Assembly: GCA_965208545.1 (NCBI GenBank) | Contig: OZ242341.1 | Location: forward strand, 543,380 to 607,379 | Direction of reading: 5' to 3' | DNA length: 64,000 nt | Origin: Candidatus Poriferisocius sp. | Lineage (GTDB): Bacteria; Actinomycetota; Acidimicrobiia; Acidimicrobiales; Bin134 | Part shown: piece by piece, positions 1,737 through 23,878 of the stretch | How positions within the stretch are numbered: position 1 is the first letter of the stretch | How the letters are laid out: every line of letters begins with the position of its first letter | Translations under genes and position numbers: made by a program | Notes under the pieces: model-generated | Databases searched by the model: none | What the model was told of the DNA's origin: nothing | The model's input: only the letters and a program-made list of their open reading frames with translations

Positions 1737-1762
1737 GAAACGTTGTTCCGCTTACCGGAACA
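1737..1762 (+). promoter_or_regulatory. operator-like motif copy S1: GAAAC-gt-TGTTCC-gcttac-CGGAACA
   Basis: It lies in the 117-bp divergent intergenic region, 28 nt upstream of ATG 1791. The same block spacing occurs at 8394, 20278 and 23853. TGTTCCG/CGGAACA form a 7-bp inverted repeat. Confidence 0.6.
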
Positions 1763-1790
1763 GTGTGCCGCTGACGACACCGGAGCACCA

Positions 1791-2603
1791 ATGCGCGAGA
1801 CGCTGAAGGGCGTCCAAGACATCTTTGACGAGCGGGGCCCGACAGATGCCACGGGCACGTTCAATCGGCTGTGGTCGATCACCGAAGAGCTCATGGTAAA
1901 GATCGAGGCCCGGTTCGAACTGGTACGAGATCCCAGTACGGAGGACTTGGAGTCGTACCGAGGCGACGCCGAATACCCCGCAGGGCGGCTGGCTGGCTAC
2001 ACCGGACCGGAGATGGACTGGCTGGTCCACTCATGGATCGGCAACCCCCCGCTGGGGTTCACCAACATGCACGTCACCGCCTGGCTCGGGCCCCATATCG
2101 ACGTGCCCCATCTAGGCATCGCCTGGGGGACACTGCCGGACTTGTGGTTCTACATCGACTTCAATCCTCGCTCCGATCTCATGCTCGACACCGATTCGCT
2201 CGACAAGTTCTGGGGTCCGCTCAACGAGGAGTTCTTAGAGCTGCGGGCCGATGAGGGGCTGGCCCCGTTCACCTCCCGGGCGCTGTACGTTCGCCAGGCC
2301 CTGAGCGAAGTGGCCATCTGCTTCACTACCCCGGGCATCGTCTACGACGAGAGCCGGCTGAACCAGGTGAGCGAATTGGCCCACCGCCGGGTCGACCAGT
2401 GGCTGGCGTGGGTGGACGAGGCCGAGCCCGTGCCGCTTGAGCGCCGGGAACAGCTGGCCGCCGGCGATCTGGCCCGGCGGCGTAACATCGCCGAGAGAGA
2501 CCCGGCCAACATCATGGGCGTTCGTTTCTTCGGAGAGGAGATGACCGACCGTCTCGTGCGTGCCCTGTGGGGCGGCGACCGGGTGTTGCCCCGACCAAGC
2601 TGA
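1791..2603 (+). CDS. red chlorophyll catabolite reductase (RCCR)-like / bilin-reductase-fold protein, paralogue 1
   Basis: ATG 1791 is preceded by GGAG. It resembles plant RCCR at motif level, recalled from memory: HSWIGNPPLG, VPHLGIAWG..LWFYIDFNPRSDLMLDTDSLDKFWGPL, SRALYVRQALS, and the C-terminal ARRRNIAERDP..FFGEEMTDRLVRAL. The long 5' extension of the tracked ORF (from 1527) overlaps the divergent gene and was discarded. Confidence 0.6.
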   Translation: MRETLKGVQDIFDERGPTDATGTFNRLWSITEELMVKIEARFELVRDPSTEDLESYRGDAEYPAGRLAGYTGPEMDWLVHSWIGNPPLGFTNMHVTAWLGPHIDVPHLGIAWGTLPDLWFYIDFNPRSDLMLDTDSLDKFWGPLNEEFLELRADEGLAPFTSRALYVRQALSEVAICFTTPGIVYDESRLNQVSELAHRRVDQWLAWVDEAEPVPLERREQLAAGDLARRRNIAERDPANIMGVRFFGEEMTDRLVRALWGGDRVLPRPS

Positions 2604-2614
2604 GGGGAACTGGG

Positions 2615-3754
2615 ATGTTGATCAAGAACCAGTGGTACGCCGTGGAATTCGGGCAGTGGGTGACCGACCAGCCGGTGCTGGCCCGGGTCCACGGCCACGA
2701 TCTGGTGCTGTGGCGCAGCCCGAACGGCACGGTCAACGCCCAGTCCGATTTGTGCGTCCACCGGGGCGGGTCCCTGGCCGGCGGCTCGGTGGTGGGCGAT
2801 TGCGTGCAGTGCCCCTACCACGGCTGGCGCTACGGAGCCGATGGGGCCTGCGTGGAGATTCCGGCCAACCGCCCCGACCTGCCCATTCCCAAGAAGGCCC
2901 GGATCGACACCTATCCTTGCATCGAGCGCTACGGCTTCGTGTGGGTATTTCTCGGCGATCTGGCGCCCGAACAGCGGCCCCCGGCGCCGGAATTGGAGGG
3001 CCTTGAGGAGCACACTGAGGCCAGGGCCGAGGGATACCGGGCGGTCATCGGAGAGTTCACCTGGCAGGCCAACTACGACCGGGTGCTGGAGAACGCGGTG
3101 GACATCGCCCATACCCCCTTCGTGCACTCCGGCTCGTTCGGCAACAAAGACGAGCCCGAGATCCAAGACTTCGACCTCGACGAAACCCGGGTCAACGGCC
3201 ACTTGGCGTCGGTCACCGCCACCGTGGAACTCGAACCGCCCCGCCCGTCGGGGCTGTGGCGGTTCATCTCCAAGAAAGACCGACCGCCGGTGAGCACCTC
3301 CACCGGGTTCTACCCGCCCAATGTGTCGATGCTCATCGTGCGGCTGCCCATGGGCGAGATCCGCATCTTCACCGCCGCGGTGCCCCGCGACGAGCACGTC
3401 ACCGTCTCCAAGTTCTGCATGTTGCGCACCTTCTTCACCGGGGGCTGGGCCGACAAGAACTCCTACGAGCGCACAATCAAGATCTTCCTGGAGGACCAGC
3501 CCACAGTCGAGGGCCAGCGCCCGGAGCTGCTGCCGTTCGACCTGTCGGCCGAGCTGCACGTCAAGTCCGACTCCATCCAACTGGCCTACCGTCGCTGGCG
3601 CCAGGAGCAGATCGACAAGGGCTGGGCGCTGCAGATCCCGTCGGATGAGGAGGCCATGAGGGCCGCGGCGGTGATTCCCTCTCCGGGACGCTCCAACGAC
3701 CCCGAGTTGGCCAACGCCTGGGTGTTCCCCACCGTGGGGGAGGACCGATCATGA
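2615..3754 (+). CDS. Rieske [2Fe-2S] non-heme-iron oxygenase, alpha-only type (PaO/CAO/Tic55/VanA-like group)
   Basis: Rieske motif CVHRGGSL-x-CPYHGWRY and mononuclear-iron motif ENAVDIAHTPFVH are present. ATG 2615 follows GAGGGG. Confidence 0.85.
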   Translation: MLIKNQWYAVEFGQWVTDQPVLARVHGHDLVLWRSPNGTVNAQSDLCVHRGGSLAGGSVVGDCVQCPYHGWRYGADGACVEIPANRPDLPIPKKARIDTYPCIERYGFVWVFLGDLAPEQRPPAPELEGLEEHTEARAEGYRAVIGEFTWQANYDRVLENAVDIAHTPFVHSGSFGNKDEPEIQDFDLDETRVNGHLASVTATVELEPPRPSGLWRFISKKDRPPVSTSTGFYPPNVSMLIVRLPMGEIRIFTAAVPRDEHVTVSKFCMLRTFFTGGWADKNSYERTIKIFLEDQPTVEGQRPELLPFDLSAELHVKSDSIQLAYRRWRQEQIDKGWALQIPSDEEAMRAAAVIPSPGRSNDPELANAWVFPTVGEDRS

Positions 3755-4470
3755 GTCTGTCGGCTGACCTCAGCATTGGCACGGTGGAGGCCATCGCCGA
3801 TCGCCTGGGGTTGGAGGAGACGGTGAACACTCCCTTGGTCTCGGCCATGGACGGTTCACCGGTGGGCGCCCATCGGGTGCTGGCCCGCGACGGGGTGGCG
3901 GCGCTGGTGTACGCGGGCATGAAGGTTGATGCCTTCGGGCTGGACAGCCACATGTGCTTCGCCTTCACCCCCGCGGCCAGCCCGGTGCCCCATTTCACCG
4001 TGGACTCGGTGCTGGCCGGACCGCACTATGCGTTCCACTTGGACTTGATCCCCCGCCTGGACCCGGGCGCCAACCTGGCCTACATCGACCACTGCTATGG
4101 CCCGCTCACCGAGGTTCACGACGAGACCATGCAGATCGAGGGACTCACCCCGGCACACCTGTCACCCCGCCAATGGCAGCTCATGTCGGCGTGGATGCTG
4201 GCCCACCGGGCTGACGAGGACGGATTTCGGGCGGTGTTCGGTGCGGTGGCCTCCTATCGGGACCACTGGCTAGACCTGGTGGCCGATGGTGTACCCGACG
4301 AGGCCACCGGCGGGGCCACTGCCGAGCAGCTGGCTGAACGGGATGCCCGCAACCGGGCTGCCATCTTCAATCCAGCGGTCGATCCCGTGTGGGCCCGGGT
4401 CGATCAGCTGCTCGGCCCCGAGACGAGCGCCGTCATCCAGGCCAGCCTCAAAACCGCGGCCCGCTCCTAG
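3751..4470 (+). CDS. RCCR-like / bilin-reductase-fold protein, paralogue 2
   Basis: ATGA overlap with the Rieske gene. It aligns by eye with the 1791 gene: SPVPHFTVDSV..YAFHLDLIPRLDPGANLAYIDHCYGPL against DVPHLGIAWGT..LWFYIDFNPRSDLMLDTDSLDKFWGPL. The C-terminal ERDARNRAAIF..LLGPETSAVIQASLK resembles the RCCR C-terminus. Confidence 0.55.
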   Translation: MSLSADLSIGTVEAIADRLGLEETVNTPLVSAMDGSPVGAHRVLARDGVAALVYAGMKVDAFGLDSHMCFAFTPAASPVPHFTVDSVLAGPHYAFHLDLIPRLDPGANLAYIDHCYGPLTEVHDETMQIEGLTPAHLSPRQWQLMSAWMLAHRADEDGFRAVFGAVASYRDHWLDLVADGVPDEATGGATAEQLAERDARNRAAIFNPAVDPVWARVDQLLGPETSAVIQASLKTAARS

Positions 4471-4491
4471 CCGATCACGAGGGAGAGCACC

Positions 4492-5433
4492 ATGAGCGAA
4501 TCCGAAGCCTCCGAGTGGCAGCAGCGCATCACCGGTGAGTGGTACGGCCTGCCGTCGGTGTTCGACGCCGAGGGAAACCACACCGGGTTCAACAAGGTCA
4601 GCCGGGCCAGCGTTTTCGCCGACGGCAAAGTCACCTACTGGATGCAGTGCAACTTCATGAACACCGGCCCGCTTCGCAACCGGTTCGAGATCAAGGACTT
4701 CGAGTTCGGCGTGGACGACCGGGGCGACGACCGCATCTACCAGGGTCCCGACTTCTACGGCGCCGGCCATCCCTATGGCTCACTGGTGGACTCGCACTAC
4801 TACGCGCCGGGGTGGCGGGCCGACCTCAACACCATGAACCAGATCCTGCCCGACGGAGTGACCCAGGTGTACTCGTCGCTGCTGTACGAGGGACCCACCA
4901 TCTTCTCGGTGTTCAACGGCGTTTACCTGAACGCCCACGACTACGACACCAACCCCGAGACCAAGGCGTGGATCGACGCCCACATCGAGGCCGAACGGGA
5001 GATGGCGGCCTGGCCCCACACCGTGCCCGACCGCACCGGGGGTGAGTGGACCGGGGAGTGCGAGGTGTTCGGGGCCGACCAGCAGCGCCGCGGATCAGTG
5101 AGCGTGCGCCTGCGCCATGACCCCATCGATCTGGTGCGCGCCACCCACGCTCTGGAGCTCACCGGGGCGATCGACTACTCGCACACCTACATCCGCACCC
5201 GGTCGCACGGCAACCGCTACACCTACGACGGCCCCGACCTCTGGGGCAACGCCATCGCCTACGGCCGAGCCCTCTACACCTCTCAGCACCACGTCAGCGA
5301 AGCATTCAAGGTCAAAGGCCGAGAGTTCATCATCGACCGCGACTACACCCTGGCCGTGGCTTGGAAGCTCTACTCCGGCGACCGGATGACCGACATCGTC
5401 TTCGGCCCCCTCACCTTCACCCCCGACGCCTAA
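4492..5433 (+). CDS. calycin/lipocalin-like beta-barrel protein, two GxWxG modules, function unknown
   Basis: ATG 4492 follows GAGGGAGAG. GxWxG motifs are ITGEWYGLPSVFDAEG and TGGEWTGECEVF. It resembles the three neighbouring minus-strand genes. Confidence 0.55.
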   Translation: MSESEASEWQQRITGEWYGLPSVFDAEGNHTGFNKVSRASVFADGKVTYWMQCNFMNTGPLRNRFEIKDFEFGVDDRGDDRIYQGPDFYGAGHPYGSLVDSHYYAPGWRADLNTMNQILPDGVTQVYSSLLYEGPTIFSVFNGVYLNAHDYDTNPETKAWIDAHIEAEREMAAWPHTVPDRTGGEWTGECEVFGADQQRRGSVSVRLRHDPIDLVRATHALELTGAIDYSHTYIRTRSHGNRYTYDGPDLWGNAIAYGRALYTSQHHVSEAFKVKGREFIIDRDYTLAVAWKLYSGDRMTDIVFGPLTFTPDA

Positions 5434-6089
5434 CCGACCACCACCGATACCGAGCGGTTCCCGTCGTCAATGACTTCGGTGATCTCGATGCCGGTGGCTC
5501 CGATGGTGTCGTGCATGGCCCAGAGGCGGCGGCGCTGGGAGGGGGAGGGCCAATCGGTGGCTACCAGCATGGGCCCGACGGCCCGGCGCAGCGGCCAGGT
5601 GCCATCGGGATCGGGGGGCGGGGCCGACAGGTCCAGGCGTGGCTCCTCGCTGGAGGCCTCGGGGACGGCCACCCCCACGATGTCGGCTACTGATCGGCCG
5701 GCCAGGGAGAAGAATCCGCCGGTGAGTTGGCGGTCGGGGGCCACCAGCACGCTGTAGGACTCGAATTCGTAGCCGAATCGGGGCCAGAGACCCTGTCCGG
5801 TAAGGGCGCCGGGCTGCCACAGGGTGCCGGAGCCCACCACGTCGGGGCCGAGATAGCGACGCTGGTCTCCGTCTATCTCCAGATCGAATACCCACTCGCC
5901 CGCGAAGGCGGCCATGGGGTGGCCGGCCAGTTGGGACGAGGGTTGGCACTGCTGGGTGACCACCAGCCGACCCTCTCCGGCCTGTTCCACGATCCGGCGC
6001 TGAGCGACCTCGCCGCGAAACGTGCCGTCGGGGTCGTAGACGTACTCGACGATCAGCCAGTCACCGCCGAAGCGGTCTCTCTCGGTCAT
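5430..6089 (-). CDS. calycin/lipocalin-like beta-barrel protein (GxW motif), function unknown
   Basis: The internal ATG 6089 (MTERDRFGGDWLIVEYVYDPDG) forms an ATGA overlap with the stop of the upstream gene at 6086. The longer tracked ORF (to 6203) would overlap that gene. Confidence 0.6.
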   Translation of the reverse strand: MTERDRFGGDWLIVEYVYDPDGTFRGEVAQRRIVEQAGEGRLVVTQQCQPSSQLAGHPMAAFAGEWVFDLEIDGDQRRYLGPDVVGSGTLWQPGALTGQGLWPRFGYEFESYSVLVAPDRQLTGGFFSLAGRSVADIVGVAVPEASSEEPRLDLSAPPPDPDGTWPLRRAVGPMLVATDWPSPSQRRRLWAMHDTIGATGIEITEVIDDGNRSVSVVVG

Positions 6090-6988: not shown

Positions 6989-7062
6989 ATTCGGACCTTC
7001 GCAGCCCATGAGACGATGGGCCGGTCGCCCTGGGAGAGCGATCCCTTACTCACATTCGGACC
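6963..7062. repeat. 35-bp imperfect direct repeat (6963-6997 and 7028-7062, 30/35 identical, offset 65 bp) duplicating a gene-gene junction
   Basis: Both copies read ccctgggaga.cga.cc....ctcacattcggacc. Copy 2 holds the stop of gene 7050-7868. Copy 1 holds the start of gene 6086-6988. Confidence 0.85.
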
Positions 7063-7868
7063 AAGCGCACCGTCTGCGTGGCCACAGGGGTGGCGGTCAG
7101 CACCGCGCCGAGGTCGGTATCGGGAGGCTGGGGGGCCAGATACCGGCCCTCGGTGGCCAGCGCAAGCCCGTCTTCGCCAAACGGGTAGGGATCCAGCCCG
7201 TATTCCCCGCCGGGACGCTCGACCACCGAGATGGTCACGTCGTCGCCCACCGCTCGGGGCACGTTGGGGAAGTCGGAGGTGCCCCGCTCGCCTTCGGGAG
7301 CCAGGTGGAAGTACAGGGAGATGGTGTCGAAGAACTGGAGCTGCTTGTAGGCGTGGAACAGATATTCGTCGGTGGCGTGATCGGGATCGTCGGCGGCCAA
7401 CTGCTCCTTCAGGCGGCGCTGGCGGCTCTCCTCGTTGCCCAGCATGGCGTCGACTTCGGGGCGCAACTCGTCGGGGATCACGTCCAAAAAGATCTTGTCG
7501 CTCAACCCGTACCGTCCCCGGTAGAGGCCATAGGTGTGCATCGAAGAGATGATGCCGCTGAACGGATGATGGGATTCGTTGAACGCCGGAGAGCCCGCTG
7601 AGGTGGTCACGATCTGGGGCAGCGGGGTGGCGGTCAGGTTGTAGGGCAAGCCGGTGTCGGGATTCTGAGGGGCTTGGGCGTCGAGGTCGGCCCAGCCCTG
7701 GTCGTGATGGTCGACGATGAACTGCATCGGCTCGGCCGGTTCGAGCCCGTCGAACTCCTCGTTGCCGAAGTTGGCGGCCAGCGACCCGGCGAAGGCGGTG
7801 TGCTGGTGCATGGCGATAACGAAATGGGGGGCGTCGGCGATTCCTCCGGGGGCGCTTTGGACGATCAT
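7050..7868 (-). CDS. His-rich hypothetical protein (DUF3891-like by recollection)
   Basis: ATG 7868. His clusters: AMHQHTAF, VDHHDQGWADLD, NESHHPFSG, SSMHTYG. No confident family assignment. Confidence 0.5.
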   Translation of the reverse strand: MIVQSAPGGIADAPHFVIAMHQHTAFAGSLAANFGNEEFDGLEPAEPMQFIVDHHDQGWADLDAQAPQNPDTGLPYNLTATPLPQIVTTSAGSPAFNESHHPFSGIISSMHTYGLYRGRYGLSDKIFLDVIPDELRPEVDAMLGNEESRQRRLKEQLAADDPDHATDEYLFHAYKQLQFFDTISLYFHLAPEGERGTSDFPNVPRAVGDDVTISVVERPGGEYGLDPYPFGEDGLALATEGRYLAPQPPDTDLGAVLTATPVATQTVRLVRM

Positions 7869-7946
7869 GGCCGCTGCACCCGGGTGAAGTCTTGGATCTG
7901 GAAACTCATGGCCGCTGCACCCGGGTGAAGTCCTGAATCTGGAACA
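7865..7946. repeat. 41-bp tandem duplication (7865-7905 and 7906-7946, about 37/39 identical) of an ATGA gene junction
   Basis: tcatggccgctgcacccgggtgaagtc(t/c)tg(g/a)atctggaa occurs twice. It duplicates the last 12 codons plus stop of gene 7906-8361 and the ATGA overlap with the next gene. Confidence 0.9.
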
Positions 7947-8361
7947 GGTTGGTGGCGCCGTCGCGCACCTTGTGGGTGATTATGCGACGGGTGTCGGGGT
8001 CCAAGAAGTAGTGGTTGTTGTAGACGATGTTGTTGCTCACCCGGCTGTCGATGGTGAAGACGTAGTTGTAGGGCGTGAGCTCGGCGCCTTCGAGGCTGAG
8101 CTGGTCGCTGTCGGCAAAGCACCGCTTGCCGTCGACTTGGATTGGGGTGTCGAAGATGGTTTCGCCCACCCCGTAGAGGTTCTCGAAGTGCTCGTGAAGG
8201 TGCCAGGTGCTGTTGTTGAGCCAATACACGTCCATGTGAACGGCGCTGGACTCGAGGAAATCGCCATGGGGGGTGAAGCTCTTGCACAACCCCTCCCAGT
8301 GGCCCATAAAGCACTGATAGGGCCGAGGTGAGGGTGGTCCGTAGTTTCTCGTATCGCTCAC
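7906..8361 (-). CDS. calycin/lipocalin-like beta-barrel protein, single GxWxG module, function unknown
   Basis: GTG 8361. Motif FMGHWEGLCKSFTPHG. It is the first gene of the minus-strand operon of the cluster. Confidence 0.55.
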   Translation of the reverse strand: MSDTRNYGPPSPRPYQCFMGHWEGLCKSFTPHGDFLESSAVHMDVYWLNNSTWHLHEHFENLYGVGETIFDTPIQVDGKRCFADSDQLSLEGAELTPYNYVFTIDSRVSNNIVYNNHYFLDPDTRRIITHKVRDGATNLFQIQDFTRVQRP

Positions 8362-8393
8362 GTTGGGAAGCGTAGAGTGTGCTGGAACTTGAT

Positions 8394-8419
8394 GAAACCG
8401 TGTTCCTCTGAGCGAAACA
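8394..8419 (+). promoter_or_regulatory. operator-like motif copy S2: GAAAC-cg-TGTTCC-tctgag-CGAAACA
   Basis: It lies in the 80-bp divergent intergenic region between 8361 (-) and 8442 (+), with the same spacing as S1, S3 and S4. Confidence 0.6.
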
Positions 8420-8441: not shown

Positions 8442-9401
8442 ATGATCGTCCGAGGGCTGCACTTCTCCTTCGATGCTGGCGGAGATGCCGCGCTGGCCAC
8501 CCTTTTCTACCCCGGCGACGATGGCCGACTGGACGAAGCCAGACTGACCGGGCAAGTTCCGGCCGACGACACCGATGCTCCGTGGCCGGTGGTTGTGCTG
8601 CTGCCGGGCATCAACGTGGTGCCCGACGGCTATCGGTGGCTGGCCCATCGACTGGTGGCCGACGGACTGTGCATGGTGACCTATGCGGCCATCGGGTCGC
8701 TGGGACCGGCGGGTCGGGGCATAACCCCCGGCATCGACCTGGCCGCTTTGGCCCCCGACACCATCGGCACCCGGCCGTCGGCCACCGCCCTCGGACCGCT
8801 GCTCGCCCATCTGGCTGAGCAGGCCGCCGATGAGCACAGCCCAGTAGCCGGGCGGGTGGATCTGGACCACGTAGTCGTGGGGGGCCATTCGGCGGGGGGC
8901 ACGGCCGCGTTGCACAACAGCGATCCGGGTTGGGTGCCGGGATTGCAGGCAGTGTTCGCCTACGCGGCCCACACCATGATGGCCACGGCGTTGGGCCATG
9001 GCGAGGCCGCCGTGGTGCCCATTCCGGCCCAGGTGCCGATAATGCTGCTGGGCGGTGCCGACGACGGCGTTATCGCCGCCAGCCGCGACCGATATCGCAC
9101 CGACGACGAAGCCCACGATCCCGTTCGCCGCACCTTTGCCGAGGCCATTGATCGGCAGCAGGGAGATTCTTGGCTGGTCGAGTTGGCCGATGCCGGACAC
9201 TTCGCCATGTGCGACCCGGTGGACACCACCAGCGGCCGCTCCTTCTTGGAGCCCGATCCCACGACGGTCGACCCATCCATCCGCAACCTGCTCGGCGACC
9301 TCATCGCCGGGTTCGTCGCCACCAGCCTGGGAAGACCAACCGACGCGAGCCTCGACCGGCTGGTCGAACAACCATCGATCAGGCACTGGGATCGACGCTG
9401 A
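8442..9401 (+). CDS. alpha/beta hydrolase, chlorophyllase / dienelactone-hydrolase-like
   Basis: Nucleophile elbow VVGGHSAGGTAAL. The layout parallels plant chlorophyllase as recalled: WPVVVLLPGI..Y.WLAHRLVADG, ADAGHFAMCDP, and C-terminal IRNLLGDLIAGFVATSL. Confidence 0.65.
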   Translation: MIVRGLHFSFDAGGDAALATLFYPGDDGRLDEARLTGQVPADDTDAPWPVVVLLPGINVVPDGYRWLAHRLVADGLCMVTYAAIGSLGPAGRGITPGIDLAALAPDTIGTRPSATALGPLLAHLAEQAADEHSPVAGRVDLDHVVVGGHSAGGTAALHNSDPGWVPGLQAVFAYAAHTMMATALGHGEAAVVPIPAQVPIMLLGGADDGVIAASRDRYRTDDEAHDPVRRTFAEAIDRQQGDSWLVELADAGHFAMCDPVDTTSGRSFLEPDPTTVDPSIRNLLGDLIAGFVATSLGRPTDASLDRLVEQPSIRHWDRR

Positions 9402-9426
9402 GAACTAGCAACAGGAGGGAAATGAA

Positions 9427-10233
9427 ATGACCAAGCGCATCGTCATCACCGGCAGCACCAGGGGGATCGGCAACGGGTTGGCCCGCGAGTTCTTGAAGCG
9501 CCGATGCCAGGTGGCGGTGAGCGGCCGTTCAGCAAGTCAGGTCGACGATGTGGTGGCCGAGCTGGGCCAGTACTACGGCGAGTCCAAAGTTTGCGGCGCG
9601 GCCTGCGACATCACCAATCCCGAACAGCTCCAGCGGCTGTGGGACTGTGCAGCAGGGGCTTTCGGCGGCGTCGATGTGTGGGTCAACAACGCGGGGGTCA
9701 GCATCACCCGCCAGCCGTTGTGGGAGCAGCAGGATGGAGAACTGGCCGCGCTGGTTGACACCAACCTCACCGGCGCGCTGCTGGCCAGCAAGACCGCTGT
9801 CGCCAATATGGTGCGCCAAGGCCACGGTCAAGTTTGGAACACCGAGGGATTCGGGTCCGACGGCGCCACCCAGCCCGGCATGGCCGCCTATGGGGCCACC
9901 AAGCGGGCGGTGCGGTATCTGCAAAAGGCCCTGCGCAAGGACACCGCCGACACCCCGGTGCAGGTGTGCACGGTGTCACCAGGCATCGTGGTGACAGACT
10001 TGCTCACCGGCGACTACGACCTCACCTCCGAGCAATGGGAAAAGTCGAAGAAGATCTTCAACATCCTGGGCGACCACGTCCACACTGTGACTCCCTGGCT
10101 GGCCGACCACATTCTGGCCGCCGACAAGTCAGGCGCCCGGGTGGTGTGGCTGACCCGGCGCAAGGCCTTCGCCCGGTTCATGACCGCCTCGTTCCGAAGG
10201 CGCGACCTCTTCAGGGAGATCGAGGGGGCTTAG
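9427..10233 (+). CDS. short-chain dehydrogenase/reductase, chlorophyll b reductase NOL/NYC1-like subfamily
   Basis: AGGAGG RBS. ITGSTRGIGNGLAREFL, NNAG, GFGSDGATQPGMAAYGATKR (YxxxK) and VSPGIVVTDLL closely parallel the recalled Arabidopsis NOL motifs ITGSTKGIGYALAREFL, GAGSDGRPTPRFAAYGATKR and LSPGMVTTDLL. Confidence 0.7.
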   Translation: MTKRIVITGSTRGIGNGLAREFLKRRCQVAVSGRSASQVDDVVAELGQYYGESKVCGAACDITNPEQLQRLWDCAAGAFGGVDVWVNNAGVSITRQPLWEQQDGELAALVDTNLTGALLASKTAVANMVRQGHGQVWNTEGFGSDGATQPGMAAYGATKRAVRYLQKALRKDTADTPVQVCTVSPGIVVTDLLTGDYDLTSEQWEKSKKIFNILGDHVHTVTPWLADHILAADKSGARVVWLTRRKAFARFMTASFRRRDLFREIEGA

Positions 10234-10299
10234 CTGAGCCTGGCGCTAGGGATTCTGAGGGGGCTTAGCTGAGCCTGGCGCTAGGGATTCTGAGGGGGC
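10222..10299. repeat. perfect 35-bp tandem duplication x2 plus an 8-bp partial third copy, at a convergent gene junction
   Basis: gagggggcttagctgagcctggcgctagggattct occurs at 10222-10256 and 10257-10291, followed by gagggggc. Each unit contains the stop codons of both convergent genes. Confidence 0.95.
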
Positions 10300-15043: not shown

Positions 15044-15052
15044 GGCGGCCGA

Positions 15053-15148
15053 TCATCCGTCGAAATCCACCGAGTTGGCGGTCAGCGCCACGCACTCGCA
15101 TCACCCGTCGAAGTCCACCGGGTCGCCGGTCAGCGCCATGCACTCGCA
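15053..15148. repeat. 48-bp imperfect tandem duplication (42/48 identical) of the 3' end of the binding-protein gene
   Basis: 15101-15148 encodes CECMALTGDPVDFDG-stop. 15053-15100, just past that stop and in frame, encodes CECVALTANSVDFDG-stop. Confidence 0.9.
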
Positions 15149-16537
15149 CTCAGGGTCGAACCGGAATCGCCGATAGAGATCGCCTCCGGCGTAGCTGCCC
15201 TCGGTGAACTCCACCCCGTAGACCGAAGCCGCCTCAAAGCTGTCGCCCAGGGCCCACATCGCCTCGCTGACCCCCTGGGCGCTCACCTCGGTCATATGGG
15301 GGGCGGCGGCTCTCAGCAGACGCAAGACGTCGCAGAACATGAGGCCGGTGCGGATATTGGCCCGCTCGACGAACTCCAGACCCGCGGCGGCGAAGATGTC
15401 GGCGCACTCCTGTTCAGCTGGGCTGGCGGGGAACGAATACTGCTCGTCGTTCACGTCGTAGCCGGGAAGCACGCTGATGCCGCTAGACCCCGGCATCATC
15501 TCCGGGTAGTTGAACACGTTGAACTCGGGGGCGTCATAGCTGGATACTGCGTAGGCAGGGGCGTAGTTCTGGGTGATGCTGGTGTCGATGAACCACGACA
15601 CCAGCCGAGATCCGCCAATGGCCACCACCTTGTCCACGCCCGCCTCCTTGAAGTTGATGATGGCTTGGAGCTGGTCGTTGTTGAACGACGTCCCGTCGGT
15701 GGGGTCGATGGTGTTGTAGGAAGCGACTTCTACCCCGGCGGCGGCCAGACGGGGGGCGAACTGCTCGTCGTAGACCCGCTGGCTTAGCTCGGATTCGATA
15801 GCGATGATGCCCAGGGTGGCCCCGTCGAACCAGCCATCCTCGATGAGTCCGGTGGCCAGTCCGGCTACGAGGTCGTCATAAGAGGGGAGCATCGGTGACC
15901 AGTAGTAGGGGGCCAGCTCTTCGAATCCGGCGTTGTCCACCGGATACAGCGCGGCGTCGAACATGAGGGTGTTGGCGTTGTGATAGCAGGGACGGGCGTT
16001 CTCCTGGAACTGACCGGTCATCACCACGGCGAAGGCCTTGTCGTCTTGAGTGATGGCATTGCAAATGGCTTCCTCCGACACCGGGCTGTCGGTGATGGCG
16101 TTGAACACCGTAACTTTGGGGTCTATCTGGCGGCCGGCGATACCGCCGGCGGCGTTGAAGTGATCGACCAGCGCGGCCACTTGGGCCTCGCGGTCACCCT
16201 CGTCGGGGGTCTCCCAGCCGAATGCGGCGGCAACCGCCGAGGTGTCGGTGATGATGAACGAGATGGTGATGGTGTCGTCGCTGACCCCGGGGGTGTCCGG
16301 GCCGGCAGGTACCGGACCGGCGGTGGTGTCCTCGGGTTCAGCTATAGGCGCATCCGGTTCATCAGGTGTGTCGGGTACGGCTGCCGTCGTGGGGGCTTCG
16401 GTAGGAGCTGCGGTGGAGGCGGCGGGCGGATCGTCGGCGGCTTGCGAGCAAGCTGAGGCTACCAATCCGGCGACCAGCAGCAGCCCCAGTAGCCGAGCGC
16501 AAACCGACAGAGAGCGGCGATTGGCGGAATGGATCAT
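15101..16537 (-). CDS. ABC transporter substrate-binding lipoprotein (Leu/Ile/Val-binding family)
   Basis: Lipobox LVASAC, a Pro/Thr/Ala-rich linker, then a periplasmic-binding-protein type I body. ATG 16537 is used here. An alternative GTG start is at 16546. Confidence 0.8.
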   Translation of the reverse strand: MIHSANRRSLSVCARLLGLLLVAGLVASACSQAADDPPAASTAAPTEAPTTAAVPDTPDEPDAPIAEPEDTTAGPVPAGPDTPGVSDDTITISFIITDTSAVAAAFGWETPDEGDREAQVAALVDHFNAAGGIAGRQIDPKVTVFNAITDSPVSEEAICNAITQDDKAFAVVMTGQFQENARPCYHNANTLMFDAALYPVDNAGFEELAPYYWSPMLPSYDDLVAGLATGLIEDGWFDGATLGIIAIESELSQRVYDEQFAPRLAAAGVEVASYNTIDPTDGTSFNNDQLQAIINFKEAGVDKVVAIGGSRLVSWFIDTSITQNYAPAYAVSSYDAPEFNVFNYPEMMPGSSGISVLPGYDVNDEQYSFPASPAEQECADIFAAAGLEFVERANIRTGLMFCDVLRLLRAAAPHMTEVSAQGVSEAMWALGDSFEAASVYGVEFTEGSYAGGDLYRRFRFDPECECMALTGDPVDFDG

Positions 16538-16565
16538 CGGACACACTCTTTCACGGGGATGGAGT

Positions 16566-18121: not shown

Positions 18122-19396
18122 TCATTCTCTGGCTGCCAGCAAGCCAAGCATGAGGTCGGCCTCGCCGGCGTTAGCCCCTTGGAAAGAGCCAAACGTGTGG
18201 CCGCTCCAGACAACCCACCCATCGGCGGCCGCATCCAGACCGGTGGCGTCATCGACGGCACCGGTGCCAAATTGCTGTATTTCGACCAATTTGCCATCGA
18301 GGTCGAGCCAGACCAACGCCGCGTCCCGCTCGCCCCGCGAACTGCCCTCTCCCACCAGGTCGCCGACAACGCTCCCGGTGACAACGATGTGACTTCCGGC
18401 CTGGCGAATCTCGAATGCCGAATCGGCGCCTGGTGTTCCCCCCTGCCAGCGCCATTGCTCGTTGCCGTCGGCATCGAGCGACACCACGATCATGTCCCGC
18501 TCACCGGCGTGGTCGGCCGCGAAGGAACCCTCGGTGGAACCGGCCAACAGCACTCCGCCATCAGGGCCCAAGCCCACTCCCTGGGTCCAGTCGAGGGCCG
18601 ACGTACCCAGCTGAACAGCCCATGCCTGGTTGCCGTCGGGCCGGAGACGCACCACAAACAGGTCCTTGTCGCCAGCATTGGTCCCGCCGAGATCACCCTC
18701 GGTGTACCCGGTCAAGTACAGCCCGCCATCGGGGGCCAGCGCCGAGCCCTGGCCCCAGTCAGTGGCGTCGGTGCCTATGTGGCGGATCCACTCCTGGTTG
18801 CCGTCGGCGTCGAATTTGGCGGCAAAGCCATCGAATCCCCCAAGGTCGGTGTCGGGGTCGAGCGCTCCAGCGGAGTAGCCGGTGATGTAGGCACCGCCGT
18901 CAAAGGCGGCTACGTCGAAACCGCGGTCCCAGGCGGGCCCGCCGAACTGCCGGCGCCACTGCTCATTGCCGTCGGCGTCGAACCGGGCCAGCCACACGTC
19001 GGCCGATCCCTGATTGGGGGAGGCAAAGTCGCCTTCGGTGAAGCCACCGACGTAGATCGAACCGTCAGGCGCCACCGACACCCCCAGAGGCGAGTCGTTC
19101 TTGGGCCCGCCGTCCTGCCACGACCACCGAAGCTCGCCGGTGGGCGAATACCGGGCCAGATACACATCCCGCTGACCCTGGTTTTCGCTGGCCAGGCTGC
19201 CCTCAGTGGCCGCGGCCAGTACCACATCGCCATTGGGGGCAACCGACACGCCAAATGTGGTATCGGGCATCTCGCTGCCGGATTGGATGCTCCAATCCTG
19301 TGGAGCGGCGGCTTTTGGTTCGGAATCGCCCCCACAGGCCACCGAGGCAACAGCGACGACCCCGACAACAGCCAGAGCCGTCTTGATGCTGATCAC
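18122..19396 (-). CDS. secreted lipoprotein with beta-propeller repeats (SBBP-like)
   Basis: Signal plus lipobox VASVACGG. About 8 repeats of the pattern GxxVAPDGxxYxxGxTxGxLxxxNxGxxDxxLxRxxxxGxxxW. Confidence 0.7.
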   Translation of the reverse strand: MISIKTALAVVGVVAVASVACGGDSEPKAAAPQDWSIQSGSEMPDTTFGVSVAPNGDVVLAAATEGSLASENQGQRDVYLARYSPTGELRWSWQDGGPKNDSPLGVSVAPDGSIYVGGFTEGDFASPNQGSADVWLARFDADGNEQWRRQFGGPAWDRGFDVAAFDGGAYITGYSAGALDPDTDLGGFDGFAAKFDADGNQEWIRHIGTDATDWGQGSALAPDGGLYLTGYTEGDLGGTNAGDKDLFVVRLRPDGNQAWAVQLGTSALDWTQGVGLGPDGGVLLAGSTEGSFAADHAGERDMIVVSLDADGNEQWRWQGGTPGADSAFEIRQAGSHIVVTGSVVGDLVGEGSSRGERDAALVWLDLDGKLVEIQQFGTGAVDDATGLDAAADGWVVWSGHTFGSFQGANAGEADLMLGLLAARE

Positions 19397-19397
19397 A

Positions 19398-20162
19398 TCA
19401 GGCCGCAGCGCGGCCGCTCCTGCGCTGGCGGATCCACAGCGCCAAAAGGGCGAGCACGACGACCACGATGATCACGGGAAGCAGCCAGACCAAAACTGAG
19501 CTGCCGTCGTCGTCATCGTCGTCGGCGGGTGTGGCGGCTTGAACCGGGGCCTCAGTTGGCTCGGGCTCCGGGGCCGGGGCAGCCGCGGCCTCGGTTGGCT
19601 CCGGCTCGGGTTCTGGAGTGGGTTCGGGCTCGGGGGCCTCGGTTGGCTCCGGTTCCGGTTCTGGTGTGGGTTCGGGCTCGGGGGCCTCGGTTGGCTCCGG
19701 CTCCGGTTCGGGCTCGGGCTCGGCTGCGCTGGCGGCGGCAAAAGTAATCGCCTGCCCGGCGTAGTTGGCGTTACCGCCAATGCCGTCCCCAGCCACGATG
19801 AAACACGAGTTGTCTACATCGCACCGTCCGGGTACCACGGCCACCGGATAGTCGTAGGTGGCGGTGCCGTCGTCGCCGATCGTCACGATGTGCATCCCGT
19901 AATTGCTCAGCTCGCAATCGGCTGGCCCAACAGCCGGGAAGTTGAAGCAGGTGACGATCGTGGCGGTATTGCCCGGCAGCCAACTGGTAAGCGTTACGGT
20001 TACAACCTCGCCGTCTTCGATGTCCTCGCTCTTGGAGAGCTCCAGGGTTTCTCCGTTGTGCCCCAAACCGTGGTCGGCAGTTGCCACCGGTACAACAGAC
20101 AAACCGACAAGGGTGATGGCGACACCAGCAATCAGCAACCGTCGAATAGTGCGATCCAACAT
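19398..20162 (-). CDS. membrane-anchored secreted protein: neocarzinostatin-like Ig-fold domain + PEPT-rich linker + poly-Asp tract + C-terminal TM helix
   Basis: AGGAGG RBS and a signal peptide. The Cys pattern (TCFN..ADCE..GRCDVDNSCF..AITF) resembles apo-neocarzinostatin family proteins. The C-terminus has LLPVIIVVVVLALLALW followed by RQRR. Confidence 0.55.
   Translation of the reverse strand: MLDRTIRRLLIAGVAITLVGLSVVPVATADHGLGHNGETLELSKSEDIEDGEVVTVTLTSWLPGNTATIVTCFNFPAVGPADCELSNYGMHIVTIGDDGTATYDYPVAVVPGRCDVDNSCFIVAGDGIGGNANYAGQAITFAAASAAEPEPEPEPEPTEAPEPEPTPEPEPEPTEAPEPEPTPEPEPEPTEAAAAPAPEPEPTEAPVQAATPADDDDDDGSSVLVWLLPVIIVVVVLALLALWIRQRRSGRAAA
19545..19721 (-). repeat. in-frame 48-bp (16-aa TEAPEPEPTPEPEPEP) tandem repeats encoding a Pro/Glu/Thr linker
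   Basis: Two perfect 16-aa units plus partial flanking units are visible in the translation and the DNA. Confidence 0.85.
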
Positions 20163-20277
20163 TTGTTTCCCCTCCTAGTGCCCCGTGAGCGGCATTGGAT
20201 TTCTTGGCATTTCGAATTGCGTAGCGGCGTTGCGGACAAGTGTGCCATTGCCCGCAATGACGGACTTAGGCTAGAAC

Positions 20278-20303
20278 GAAACAGTGTTCCGGTCAACGAA
20301 ACA
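20278..20303 (+). promoter_or_regulatory. operator-like motif copy S3: GAAAC-ag-TGTTCC-ggtcaa-CGAAACA
   Basis: Same spacing as S1, S2 and S4. It lies at the end of the 121-bp divergent intergenic region and overlaps the GTG start (20284) of the FG-GAP gene. Confidence 0.55.
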
Positions 20304-21870
20304 CATAGGGCTTGCCCTGGGCATGGCGTTTGCCCTGCTCATCTCGTCCTGTGGTGGCAGCAGCCCGCAGCAGCCGGCCGCAGTCAGCCCTCAGCCGACT
20401 GCTCCCCCTGAATCGGCCACGCCTCCGCCGACTGCTTCTGCTGAACCCGCTCCCCCTGAATCGGCCACGCCTCCGCCGATTGCTCCCCCTGAACCCGCTA
20501 CTGAAGAGGCGGCCCCGGATGACGAGAGCCCCGATGAAGCGGCCCCGGCGGGAGAGAGCCCTGGTGAAGCAGCCCCGTCGGACGACCCGGTGCCCCGCGA
20601 CGTCGAGGGCAACATCATTCCCCCCGATGTGCCACCGACAACAGCAGCCGACCAGCGGTTTTCGATCACGGTGGTCGAAGACTTCGCCGATGGTCCGGCA
20701 GGCGCCGAAGCGGCCGACATGGACGGTGACGGAGATCTCGACCTGGTGGTCAACTCCTTCGGCTGGCGGGGGATCAACCCAACACCAGTGCAATTCCCCC
20801 CGGGTTCCCTCACGGTGTACTGGAACGGCGGCCGCGGACTGGCCGACTGGACTCCACAGCCCCTGATCACCCGTGAAGACGGGATCTACTTTCCCAACGA
20901 AGCACTGCCCCATGACATCGACGGTGACGGCGATCTCGACTTGCTGATCAGCGGCGGCTTCTTCGTGTGCGAGTTCAACCCGGCGGTGGGCCCTTGCGGC
21001 GCGCTGTTCTGGCTGGAGAACTCCGAGGGCGACTGGATTCGCCGGGACATCGTTCCCAGCGGGTCACCGCACTTCTACCACCGGGCGGAGTTCGTCGACA
21101 TCGACCACGACGGCGTGGACGATCTCATCACTGTGGCCGAGCTACTCGACGACGCCGAGGCGCAGTGGTTCAAAGGCACCGAGGGGCCCAACCGGTTCGA
21201 GCCGACGCCGCGAGTCATCGGCCGGGGAGGGGGAAGCCTCCCGGTGGTCTATGACGTGGACGGCGACGGCGACATGGACTTGGCCTCCGGCCAATACTTC
21301 TTGGAAGGCCAGTCGTATGTGTGGTTTGAGAATGTCGAGCCGCCCTCGGACACCCGTCCCGAAGGAGTTTGGGAGCGTCACGACATCACCGACTCACAGG
21401 GCCGCACCATCCAGCTGTCGGTGATTCCCGATCTGTACGGCGATGGCACCGAGGGCTGGATAGGTTCCAACCACGTTCCCACTCCCGAGACCCCCGATGA
21501 CCACGAAGCCGGTATCTACATCATGGAGCCGCCATCTGACCCCCGGCTGCCCTGGGGTCAGAGGATGATCAGCCATGGCATCGAGTCGCGTCCCACAGTC
21601 GGGGCCGCGTTTCAGGCCGCGCCTGGGGTGTTCTCATGGGGCGACGTGGACAACGACGGCGACATCGACCTCACCGTTTCTGGAGACGGCGACGACCGGG
21701 TGTTCTGGTTCGAACAGACAACCCCCGGCCAGTTCACCCAGCATGTACTGGCTGAGTCGTTCGCCCAAGCGGCCGGCGGGACGGTGGCCGACCTCGACGG
21801 TGATGGCGACAACGAAGTCGTGTTCACCAGCTATGAGACCCACGAGGTGCTGATCTTCAGCCTCTCCTGA
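20284..21870 (+). CDS. FG-GAP/VCBS-repeat lipoprotein
   Basis: Signal plus lipobox LLISSCGG. Ca-binding repeat cores DMDGDGDLDL, DIDGDGDLDL, DIDHDGVDDL, DVDGDGDMDL, DVDNDGDIDL, DLDGDGDNEV. Confidence 0.8.
   Translation: MFRSTKHIGLALGMAFALLISSCGGSSPQQPAAVSPQPTAPPESATPPPTASAEPAPPESATPPPIAPPEPATEEAAPDDESPDEAAPAGESPGEAAPSDDPVPRDVEGNIIPPDVPPTTAADQRFSITVVEDFADGPAGAEAADMDGDGDLDLVVNSFGWRGINPTPVQFPPGSLTVYWNGGRGLADWTPQPLITREDGIYFPNEALPHDIDGDGDLDLLISGGFFVCEFNPAVGPCGALFWLENSEGDWIRRDIVPSGSPHFYHRAEFVDIDHDGVDDLITVAELLDDAEAQWFKGTEGPNRFEPTPRVIGRGGGSLPVVYDVDGDGDMDLASGQYFLEGQSYVWFENVEPPSDTRPEGVWERHDITDSQGRTIQLSVIPDLYGDGTEGWIGSNHVPTPETPDDHEAGIYIMEPPSDPRLPWGQRMISHGIESRPTVGAAFQAAPGVFSWGDVDNDGDIDLTVSGDGDDRVFWFEQTTPGQFTQHVLAESFAQAAGGTVADLDGDGDNEVVFTSYETHEVLIFSLS
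20401..20496 (+). repeat. in-frame 48-bp tandem repeat x2 encoding APPESATPPP(T/I)A..EP linker
   Basis: gctccccctgaatcggccacgcctccgccga.tgct.c..ctgaaccc occurs twice in succession. Confidence 0.9.
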
Positions 21871-23071
21871 GAATGCCGACCTCCTCGAGTTCGCCCCGCA
21901 TGGCGTTCACTGCATTGATCATGCTGGCTTGGAGCATGTAGGCCCGGGCCTCATCGGGGTCGGCAGCCCGAGCCGCCATCTGGTCGAGGGCCCGTTGGCG
22001 GGCCGCGCCGTCGGGAGCGGCCAGGCTCTGGGCGTTCTCGTGGGTATGCCGTCTGACGTAGTCGATGGCCAGGTTCCGCCGCAGCTCGGCGTGGTGAGCC
22101 AGTCGATCAGCGCCGATGCCGCCCCGCAGCACGGCGGCCAATGACGCTCCCAGCAGCACAGCATCGTGGATGCCCCCGTTCATGCCCATGCCCCCCAGCG
22201 GATTGTTGATGTGGGCGGCATCACCCATGAGGGCCACCCGGCCGACCAGGAAGCGATCGGCCACCCGCTGGTGGACCCGGTAGATGGTTCGATGGGCTAC
22301 TTCGTAGGGCTCATGGCGGGCCACAATCCCCTGGAGCCTTCGTTGGGCGCTCTGGTCGCTGAGCGCCTCGGCGTCGGTCTCGTCATCGCCAACGGGAAAC
22401 AGCGCCCGCCAAAGATCCAGGGTTCGCAGCAGCACCAGCCACTCATCCGGATCGGAGATGTAGTTGACGTAGGCCAGGTCGTCGAGGTAGTCGGCCATCT
22501 CGAATGGGGTGGACAGAACCAGGTAGCGGTCTTCGTAGGTCATGCCTTCGAATTCCAGCCCCAGTGATTTGCGCACCGCGCTGGCCGCGCCGTCGGCCGC
22601 CACCACCGCATCGGCGACCAGCGTTTCGCCCGAGGCCAGGCGGGCCGAGGCGGAATCGCCGCGATCGACAGCACCCACCACCTCGGCGCCGAATCTGACG
22701 GCGACATTGGCCATCGAGCGGAATCGGTCGAGCATGATCTCGCACAGCTTGTACTGCTCGCATTGCAGTCGGTACGGGTGGTTGGTCACATCGGCCAGAG
22801 TTCCGAGGTCGAACTCGGCCACCACTCCCTGACGCCGATCCCGATAGGCGAAACGGGGGGCGATCAGGCCGCGGCGGACCATCTCATCGTTGACGCCGAA
22901 GCGGTCGAGCAGATCCAGCGTGGCGGGGTGAAAGGTGGATGCCCGCAACTCTCGGGGCAGCTCGGGAGCAGCTTCCAGCAGCGTCACCTCGATGCCGCCC
23001 GACGCCAGCATGGCGCTGGCCACACACCCGACCGGGCCGGCGCCGACAACGATGGCGTGGGGCGGCCGCAC
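21857..23071 (-). CDS. FAD-dependent aromatic-ring monooxygenase (UbiH/PheA family)
   Basis: GTG start. Dinucleotide-binding motif IVVGAGPVGCVASAML, and GDAAH at MGDAAHINNPLGGMGMN. Confidence 0.8.
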   Translation of the reverse strand: MRPPHAIVVGAGPVGCVASAMLASGGIEVTLLEAAPELPRELRASTFHPATLDLLDRFGVNDEMVRRGLIAPRFAYRDRRQGVVAEFDLGTLADVTNHPYRLQCEQYKLCEIMLDRFRSMANVAVRFGAEVVGAVDRGDSASARLASGETLVADAVVAADGAASAVRKSLGLEFEGMTYEDRYLVLSTPFEMADYLDDLAYVNYISDPDEWLVLLRTLDLWRALFPVGDDETDAEALSDQSAQRRLQGIVARHEPYEVAHRTIYRVHQRVADRFLVGRVALMGDAAHINNPLGGMGMNGGIHDAVLLGASLAAVLRGGIGADRLAHHAELRRNLAIDYVRRHTHENAQSLAAPDGAARQRALDQMAARAADPDEARAYMLQASMINAVNAMRGELEEVGILRRG

Positions 23072-23077
23072 GACCGG

Positions 23078-23824
23078 TCAGAACTCGCGCAGCATCATCC
23101 CGTGGCCCACGAACTGGTCGTTGATGTCCAGCGTGCGCAACGCGTGCCACAGGCAGATGGCGTTGATGGCCAGCACCGGCTTGTCCAGCCAGCGTTCGGC
23201 CTGGTCGGCCACCTCGACCATCGACAAGTTGGTGCCGCACTGCACGATGGCGTCGATGTCGTCGCCATCGAGCTCTTTGAGCACCCCGACCAGTGTCTCG
23301 GGAGTCACGTCGGCGATGGATGTGGCCGAATCGCAGCGCAGGCCGTGCACCCGCTTCACCTCGTAGCCGCACTCGGTGAAGTAGCCGTACACCTGCTCGT
23401 CGGCCGCTGGCTGGTAGGGCGTCAGGCAGGCGATGCGCGACACGCCGAGGCGTTCCAATGCGGCGTTGCAGGCCGCCGCGCCGGATGTGATCCCGATGTC
23501 GCCGGCGATTTCCGCCACCCGAGCCTGGAAGGCGGCGTTGCCCTCTTTGCCTCCCCAGAATGTCTCGGCCGACATCCCCATGAGCAGGTGATCGGGTTTG
23601 CAGGTCATAAGGTCGTGTACCGCGGTGGGGATGGTCTGGCGGATCAGGTCCAGAAAGTGCAGGAATGCCTCGTCGGTGCTCAAGTCGGGTGCCTCCACCA
23701 AGAAGCGCCCACTGTGGAACGTGACGCCCGGGGGCCGCACCCGGGCGAAGTCGTGCTCGACCACCGTGTTGGTCGACGGCACGATGACCCCGATCTTGGC
23801 CCGGTAGCCGACAACATCAGGCAT
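23078..23824 (-). CDS. Asp/Glu/hydantoin-racemase-fold protein, maleate cis-trans isomerase / arylmalonate decarboxylase-like
   Basis: IGVIVPSTNTVVEHDF at the N-terminus and a second half-domain with CGTNLS, typical of maleate isomerase-like proteins. Confidence 0.65.
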   Translation of the reverse strand: MPDVVGYRAKIGVIVPSTNTVVEHDFARVRPPGVTFHSGRFLVEAPDLSTDEAFLHFLDLIRQTIPTAVHDLMTCKPDHLLMGMSAETFWGGKEGNAAFQARVAEIAGDIGITSGAAACNAALERLGVSRIACLTPYQPAADEQVYGYFTECGYEVKRVHGLRCDSATSIADVTPETLVGVLKELDGDDIDAIVQCGTNLSMVEVADQAERWLDKPVLAINAICLWHALRTLDINDQFVGHGMMLREF

Positions 23825-23852
23825 TGGCGTCCCTCTCGACTCGCTCTATTGC

Positions 23853-23878
23853 GGAATGATGTTCCGCTCTAAGGAACA
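23853..23878 (+). promoter_or_regulatory. operator-like motif copy S4 (degenerate): GGAAT-ga-TGTTCC-gctcta-AGGAACA
   Basis: Same block spacing as S1-S3, with 3 mismatches. It lies 28 nt upstream of the minus-strand gene start 23824 and 72 nt upstream of the tRNA. Confidence 0.45.

Follow-up and report, generated by a model that had tools for sequence, protein, structure and literature searches.

Three-box operators of a probable IclR-family regulon in a gene island of an uncultured, sponge-associated lineage of Acidimicrobiia

In a 64,000-nt stretch of the genome of Candidatus Poriferisocius sp. (contig OZ242341.1, positions 543,380 to 607,379; hereafter the window, meaning this whole stretch at its full length), we found four copies of a 26-nt motif made of three boxes, each copy lying in a divergent promoter region. 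We read these copies as operators of a transcription factor of the IclR family, the cognate regulator most likely being the product of an IclR gene that related genomes have a short way past the window's left edge. We give this reading a probability of roughly 85%. The type of site is a known one, the three-box IclR operator, and the locus is a probable local IclR regulon and a new example of a known switch; no new kind of regulatory element is revealed. The four sites, with their boxes in capitals, are the following:

1737–1762, plus strand: site 1, three-box operator, GAAAC-gt-TGTTCC-gcttacc-GGAACA, GAAACGTTGTTCCGCTTACCGGAACA
8394–8419, plus strand: site 2, three-box operator, GAAAC-cg-TGTTCC-tctgagc-GAAACA, GAAACCGTGTTCCTCTGAGCGAAACA
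20278–20303, plus strand: site 3, three-box operator, GAAAC-ag-TGTTCC-ggtcaac-GAAACA, GAAACAGTGTTCCGGTCAACGAAACA
23853–23878, plus strand: site 4, three-box operator with a deviant box 1, GGAAT-ga-TGTTCC-gctctaa-GGAACA, GGAATGATGTTCCGCTCTAAGGAACA

These sites had been proposed by eye from the sequence (the original prediction), and pattern searches confirmed the position and strand of all four. The original prediction had also held that the fixed bases occur three times, far above chance, and this was borne out: GAAACNNTGTTCC has three exact copies in the window against 0.02 expected, and none of 100 shuffles reached three. The dyad TGTTCC-N7-GNAACA, for which 0.67 matches would be expected in the window, picked out sites 1–4, and the looser pattern GRAAYNNYGTTYCN7GRAAC, with up to one mismatch allowed, returned only sites 1–4 and a palindromic echo of site 1 (0.00 expected). 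A position weight matrix (PWM) built from the four sites found no further copy across the 64-kb window, whose G+C content is 64–67%; the best unrelated match scored 17.5 bits, compared with 35–40 bits for the sites, and the scan showed that the sites have their 26 nt in common and unrelated flanks. Each site was indeed found between divergently oriented features: site 1 between 855–1673 (−) and 1791 (+), site 2 between 7906–8361 (−) and 8442 (+), site 3 between 19398–20162 (−) and 20284 (+), and site 4 between 23078–23824 (−) and a tRNA-Gly gene at 23950 (+).

The arrangement of the boxes matches motifs published for the IclR family. Suvorova and Gelfand (2021, Front Microbiol 12:675815, PMC8222616) describe a group 1 motif, GKTYCRYW3-4RYGRAMC, with the subgroup GTTYCRYW3RYGRAAC (“GTT-11-AAC”), and a group 2 motif, TGRAACAN1-2TGTTYCA, and for 32 orthologous groups they predict three boxes of alternating direction, one pair of which follows group 1 and the other group 2. 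Three-box motifs of PcaU, PobR and HmgR are cited in that study, as is a demonstration that binding by PcaU requires the third box. In sites 1–4, and in a further site described below as site 0, boxes 2 and 3 form (T/C)GTT(C/T)C-N7-G(G/A)AAC at the exact GTT-11-AAC spacing, a 17-bp palindrome, and boxes 1 and 2 form GRAAC-N3-GTTCC, which is the group 2 arrangement; box 1 reads GAAAC at three sites, GGAAT at one and GGAAC at site 0. At sites 1–4 box 1 sits 2 nt before TGTTCC, and the box is invariant across orthologues. The forward-reverse-forward order of half-sites noted in the original prediction is real; it is the known three-box IclR motif (Suvorova and Gelfand, 2021), and so not a new type of site.

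The candidate regulator gene is found in relatives of the window. One of them, also Candidatus Poriferisocius sp. (Acidimicrobiales; NZ_CBDBOM010000003.1, loci L026, L102 and L103), is 92–95% identical on the reverse strand and carries three pattern matches spaced as sites 1–3 are, with position 1 of the window corresponding to position 1919 of L026. At 2669–3478 (−) of L026 lies a gene for an IclR protein (Pfam IclR_C 7.3e-45, HTH_IclR 5.4e-13) that matches the Thermotoga IclR structure (PDB 1mkm) over its full length (E 1e-27); in this relative the gene is about 0.75–1.5 kb past the window's left edge. It is syntenic in five genomes (L026, L065, L048, L069 and L112), the order in window orientation being PrpD-like, cyclase and family III CoA-transferase genes (all leftward), site 0, the IclR gene and a carbon-nitrogen hydrolase (CN-hydrolase) gene (rightward), a lyase gene (leftward), site 1, and RCC_reductase-like and Rieske oxygenase genes (rightward). 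In the relatives the CN-hydrolase gene lies directly downstream of the IclR gene and is co-directional with it. The IclR gene most likely lies beside this window as well, and its product would bind the sites described here. The original prediction had stated that no regulator adjoins any site, which holds within the window, where the only regulator genes, for a MarR protein (44143–44694) and a GntR/FCD protein (52432–53124), are not near a site; it most likely does not hold as a sign that the sites lack a regulator, because in the five syntenic genomes the IclR gene lies off the left edge, and the lack is probably an effect of that edge.

A relaxed PWM scan of the relatives identified site 0, GGAACGACGTTTCTCCCAGTGGAACA, at L026 3559–3584 (−), in the stretch that separates the IclR gene from the CoA-transferase gene. 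It is upstream of both, at 2 nt from the start codon of the CoA-transferase gene and at about 80 nt from the start of the IclR gene. Its box spacing of 5-2-6-7-6 and its orientation are those of the window sites, and it is kept in the same five genomes (L026, L065, L048, L069 and L112). Its place in the IclR gene's own divergent promoter region suggests autoregulation. We also observed a weaker pair, CATTCC-N7-GGAACA, over the IclR start codon (ATGGTCATTCCTCTGAGCGGAACA; L026 3455–3480 (−), L048 6978, L065 6710, L069 3938), which may be a second site of autoregulation, or may be kept for coding reasons only.

The motif is linked to IclR genes across phyla as well. We scanned one genome per species with GAAACNNTGTTCCN7GRAACA, which gave at least 120 loci, and clustered, without bias, the open reading frames within 3 kb of the 120 matches listed; IclR emerged as the dominant family and as the largest one shared between phyla. 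With a hidden Markov model built from the clustered proteins, an IclR gene was detected in the same 8-kb block at 27 of the 120 matches listed. IclR genes make up about 0.2–0.5% of genes, so that one is expected in no more than a few per cent of 8-kb blocks taken at random. At 15 of these 27 loci, again among the matches listed, the IclR gene starts no more than about 160 nt from the motif. These close pairs come from Thermoflexus, Anaerolineae, Bacillales, Clostridium, Sporomusa, Ralstonia (four loci), Acetobacteraceae, Rhodospirillales and a deltaproteobacterium, and span the Chloroflexi, the Firmicutes and the Alpha-, Beta- and Deltaproteobacteria.

Several groups of matches outside the Acidimicrobiia deserve separate mention. 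The matches in other phyla tend to have box 1 towards the promoter and boxes 2 and 3 about 10–30 nt before a start codon, which is a possible orientation rule of three-box IclR sites. Kitasatospora (L006, L019, L042, L074, L089) and Catellatospora (L004, L022, L046) have genus-wide three-box sites with extra GTTTC/GTTC boxes just upstream; no IclR gene was found in the same 8-kb block at these loci, and the sites probably answer to IclR proteins whose genes lie elsewhere or past the block. The cyanobacterial matches (one in Leptolyngbya and three in Stenomitos frigidus; L088, L092, L095, L115) have near-identical flanks of 30–40 nt on both sides, with three copies in one genome, and look like a multi-copy element that fits the pattern by chance, and not like an operator.

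Phylogenetic footprinting, which the original prediction had proposed as a check, with absence of the motif from orthologous promoters as a refutation, showed that orthologous promoters keep the motif, with invariant boxes and variable spacers and flanks. We compared these promoters anchored on the motif (site 1, n = 11 non-redundant genomes; site 2, n = 6; site 3, n = 6; site 4, n = 5; site 0, n = 5). In the 11 Acidimicrobiia that represent site 1, GAAAC, TGTTCC and GGAACA are invariant and positions 7 and 14–19 vary, as do the flanks; at sites 2, 3, 4 and 0 the boxes are likewise kept, with drifting spacers and flanks. Across 19 distinct site sequences, positions 1, 3, 4, 9–11, 13, 21 and 23–25 never vary. 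Orthologous sites of site 2 were found in L102, L083, L023, L120, L009 and L032. Site 3 is identical in L103, L108, L028 and L011 and has one change in L044, and site 4 is kept in L103, L028, L108 and L011 despite diverged flanks; L044 has a GGAAC-box site 14 nt upstream of the Amdase-like gene of the same Amdase-like/FAD (flavin adenine dinucleotide) monooxygenase pair. In a Microthrixaceae metagenome-assembled genome (MAG; L110), where the lyase is 44% and the RCC_reductase-like protein 53% identical, a three-box site still lies between both genes, and in L032, with a hydrolase 52% and a 151-aa protein 78% identical to those flanking site 2, the site again lies between them. The orthologue-invariant boxes support the claim of the original prediction that a shared operator of four divergent promoter regions defines a regulon.

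The position of the operators relative to promoters bears on how the regulator would act. At site 1 the following feature lies directly upstream:

1699–1727, plus strand: predicted sigma-70-type promoter of the RCC_reductase-like operon, with TTGACA at 1699–1704, a 17-nt spacer and TACTGT at 1722–1727

The site 1 operator begins 9 nt after TACTGT and is followed by GGAG at 1782–1785 and by the ATG at 1791; TTGAC and TACTGT are kept in 12 of 12 site 1 orthologues, and the spacer between them drifts. By its position, site 1 would cover about +2 to +27, as expected of a repressor. The divergent spacer that holds site 2 is 80 nt long, and a conserved TAGAGT is found 15 nt upstream. Site 3 overlaps GTG 20284; the FG-GAP gene cannot start before this codon, since a TAG stands in frame at 20272. 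The FG-GAP frame, with VFRSTKH and a lipoprotein-type signal peptide (…LLISSCGG), is kept in L103, L108, L028 and L011, and both the coding sequence and binding may constrain the N7 spacer of site 3. Site 4 overlaps a conserved minus-strand, −10-like TAGTGT (23881–23876), about 50 nt upstream of the Amdase-like start. Because a conserved TATAGT box of its own precedes the tRNA-Gly gene by 11 nt, with site 4 about 55 nt further upstream of that box, and because site 4 lies on the minus-strand TAGTGT, we assign it to the Amdase-like/FAD-monooxygenase operon, which it more plausibly serves than the tRNA-Gly gene. Beyond this phylum, TTGACA-17-TATNAT promoters immediately precede the motif in three Acidobacteria and a deltaproteobacterium, and TATAAT-like boxes do so in Bacillales, Bordetella and Ralstonia.

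We propose that one IclR dimer would bind the palindrome of boxes 2 and 3, and that boxes 1 and 2 would offer an extra contact for a tetramer or for an alternative dimer, on the pattern of PcaU and PobR. At every site the bound dimer or tetramer would block the promoters of the two divergent units and so repress them, a proposal that follows from operators lying after a −10 box (site 1), over a start codon (site 3) and over the minus-strand TAGTGT (site 4). Repression would be lifted when a small-molecule effector, probably one of the substrates or intermediates of the catabolic island, binds to the C-terminal IclR domain, and the regulator would also control its own divergon through site 0.

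The alternative that fares best keeps the IclR operators and makes the regulator an effector-dependent activator or a dual regulator, in the manner of PcaU, PobR and PcaR. We consider it clearly the less probable mode. Each site, lying in a divergent region, is also upstream of minus-strand promoters, and the PcaR/PcaU/PobR model is the regulator's second-best NCBIfam match (after BhcR, both below cut-off). However, the location of the operator, 9 nt past the −10 box at site 1 and over the start codon at site 3, is that of a repressor, and the motif directly follows TATAAT-like boxes in other phyla, which likewise argues for repression.

Several observations weigh against our assignment of the sites to the syntenic IclR protein and to repression. 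The three-box IclR proteins that have been studied, PcaU and PobR, are known as activators or dual regulators, so that the direction of control is uncertain. No IclR match is encoded within the 64-kb window, the place of the gene beside it is drawn from synteny, and the genome may hold other IclR paralogues of the same specificity. Orthologues of the regulator in Actinomadura (53–55% identity) have similar motifs nearby, in unrelated surroundings and with no target genes in common with the island. Within the palindrome, each site deviates, as judged by eye, at one or two of the seven inner RY-W3-RY positions of the published consensus, deviations that we attribute to G+C-rich spacers in a genome of 65% G+C. 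As for promoters, those at sites 2–4 were read by eye, and a sigma-70 consensus scanner called none in any of the four site regions, including that of site 1. The scanner passes over the site 1 promoter because TACTGT agrees with TATAAT at only three of six positions. Boxes of the form TANNNT are usual as −10 elements in actinobacteria.

We think it very unlikely that a regulator of another family binds the motif, be it a LysR-type protein or the MarR or GntR protein of the window. GTTCC-N7-GGAAC does hold a LysR-like T-N11-A core, and the MarR (44143–44694) and GntR/FCD (52432–53124) genes do lie on this DNA, but the PWM found no copy of the motif near either gene within the 64 kb, IclR is the only cross-phylum regulator family recurring beside the motif among the 120 matches listed, and the three-box geometry is the published IclR pattern.

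A nucleic-acid structure, that is, a hairpin in the 5′ leader RNA or an intrinsic terminator on the minus strand, is more improbable still. Sites 1 and 4 fold as hairpins (z about −3), and at sites 1 and 3 a terminator scan picked out, on the minus strand, a hairpin followed by a T-rich run; sites 2 and 3, however, are no more stably folded than shuffled sequence (z +0.75 and −1.06), and the changes in the arms are non-compensatory, C12 standing with A22 in sites 2 and 3 and T12 with G22 in site 0. Moreover, no minus-strand gene ends at the sites, genes starting on both sides instead, and a structural element would sit poorly with the link to IclR genes across phyla. Barely credible is a promoter of an extracytoplasmic function (ECF) sigma factor with GAAAC as its −35 box, or a functionless short dispersed repeat: GGAAC/GAAAC resembles ECF −35 boxes and all sites lie on one strand, yet a conserved sigma-70-type −35/−10 pair precedes site 1, the dyad of boxes 2 and 3 is no promoter feature, and the sites share 26 nt only, with unrelated flanks, and are kept at orthologous positions.

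We also compared the motif with sites of other known regulators. A PpsR/CrtJ site (TGT-N12-ACA) of a photosynthesis cluster was ruled out, the spacing here being TGT-N13-ACA and the genes not being bacteriochlorophyll genes. The LexA/Cheo box, the direct repeats of GlnR/PhoP and the TetR-type sites of KstR/PsrA, as generally described, misfit in spacing or symmetry, and none of these regulators was associated with the motif among the matches listed.

Under the IclR assignment, the candidate targets and their neighbors in the window are these:

7–858, plus strand: C-terminal part of a 533-aa CN-hydrolase
855–1673, minus strand: HpcH/CitE-like C-C lyase (Pfam HpcH_HpaI 6.9e-30), candidate target, divergent from site 1
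1791–5433, plus strand: candidate operon 3′ of site 1, with an RCC_reductase-like gene, a Rieske/VanA_C oxygenase gene and two genes without a Pfam match
7050–8361, minus strand: 151-aa gene (7906–8361) and DUF3891 gene, candidate targets, divergent from site 2
8442–10233, plus strand: alpha/beta-hydrolase-like gene and short-chain dehydrogenase/reductase (SDR) gene, candidate targets 3′ of site 2
18122–20162, minus strand: neocarzinostatin-like (19398–20162) and beta-propeller genes, candidate targets, divergent from site 3
20284–21870, plus strand: FG-GAP repeat protein with a lipoprotein-type signal peptide, its start overlapping site 3
21857–23824, minus strand: Amdase/Asp-Glu-racemase-like (23078–23824) and FAD monooxygenase genes, candidate targets, divergent from site 4

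For the lyase at 855–1673 the nearest NCBIfam model is RipC/Ccl, with a score below cut-off, and for no protein of the island did any NCBIfam model reach its cut-off or give an equivalog. The start of the 151-aa gene at 8361 is supported by an ATG at the equivalent place in L009, and orthologues of the genes at 8442–10233 adjoin the site in L032. Judging from the left flank of the relatives, the island also has genes for a family III CoA-transferase, a cyclase and a PrpD-like protein. The original prediction had spoken of a “chlorophyll-like” cluster, a weak label for which the RCC_reductase Pfam match (1.2e-11) of the gene at 1791 and the Rieske/VanA_C oxygenase are the only support.

The unit of RCC_reductase-like, Rieske oxygenase and two genes without a Pfam match, together with the divergent CitE/RipC-like lyase and the operator, is kept across the Acidimicrobiia as far as the Microthrixaceae MAG, at 44–66% protein identity. 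The gene order of the 1791–5433 unit is the same in both of the following counterparts:

L110 1452–5895: counterpart of the conserved unit at window 1791–5433 (+) and 855–1673 (−)
L032 5967–7999: counterpart of the same unit

Inside the island, between sites 2 and 3, we observed an ATP-binding cassette (ABC) importer of the branched-chain amino acid type with fused components (10281–16546, minus strand). Its parts are a 922-aa permease plus ATPase, a protein of 664 aa whose C-terminal domain is an ATPase, and a binding protein of 481 aa, and read-through from site 3 may make it part of the same regulon. To the right of site 4, directly 3′ of the tRNA-Gly gene and a xylose-isomerase-like TIM-barrel gene, lies a full-length serpin gene (24839–26167, plus strand; Pfam Serpin 2.5e-71), an uncommon gene in bacteria.

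A more far-reaching proposal combines two claims: that one IclR regulator co-ordinates a so-far undescribed catabolic island of sponge-associated Acidimicrobiia (RCC_reductase-like protein, Rieske oxygenase, CoA-transferase, lyase, PrpD-like protein, ABC importer and secreted FG-GAP, beta-propeller and neocarzinostatin-like proteins), and that the common orientation and the 5-2-6-7-6 geometry of the sites reflect obligatory asymmetric binding by a tetramer or an alternative dimer. In window coordinates box 1 is the leftmost box of sites 1–4 and of site 0 alike, a shared orientation for which the chance is about 1/16. We regard this combined proposal as unlikely; if asymmetric binding were true, the locus would be a natural test bed for the “alternative dimerisation” hypothesis of IclR proteins. 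The assignment of the sites to the syntenic IclR protein provides a predicted regulator-operator pair for an island of about 27 kb in an uncultured sponge-associated lineage of Acidimicrobiia, whose enzymes, transporter and secreted proteins would form one probable regulon. Naming the effector of the regulator would point to the substrate of the island, and five natural three-box sites of fixed geometry are added to the hypothesis that IclR proteins may dimerise on DNA in two ways.

Among known systems, the structurally characterized IclR proteins (Thermotoga TM0065, 1mkm; E. coli IclR and AllR; BlcR; TtgV) resemble the regulator in their two-domain architecture of HTH_IclR plus IclR_C, aligned along the full length of the regulator, and are only distantly related to it (E 1e-27 or weaker). 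The three-box motifs of Suvorova and Gelfand (2021) are like the sites described here in their alternating half-sites, in lying tens of nucleotides upstream of start codons, often in divergons, and in often serving autoregulation of the transcription factor; they are unlike them in that the central spacer is G+C-rich here as opposed to W3, and in that here five same-strand sites of the same geometry lie within about 27 kb. The portion of the supplementary lists of that study considered here makes no mention of Acidimicrobium, Actinomadura or Thermoflexus and includes many TGTTCC/GGAACA sites; as far as that portion goes, the orthologous group and its target genes appear to be uncatalogued, though sites of this kind are already described.

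PcaU and PobR of Acinetobacter baylyi and HmgR of Pseudomonas putida share with the present sites a palindrome plus an external half-site. The third repeat of these systems lies about 10 bp away, and their boxes are of the type GTNCG-N5-6-CGNAC, whereas here box 1 is 1–3 nt from box 2. Against the NCBIfam model pcaR_pcaU (TIGR02431) the regulator scores 145.4 bits, below the cut-off of 284.75, and is therefore not a member of the PcaR/PcaU/PobR subfamily. The targets of PcaU, PobR and HmgR are the protocatechuate, 4-hydroxybenzoate and homogentisate pathways, while the flanking genes of the island are not pca or pob genes. As in the arrangement proposed here, PcaU, PobR and HmgR act from divergent regions on catabolic operons and on the genes that encode them.

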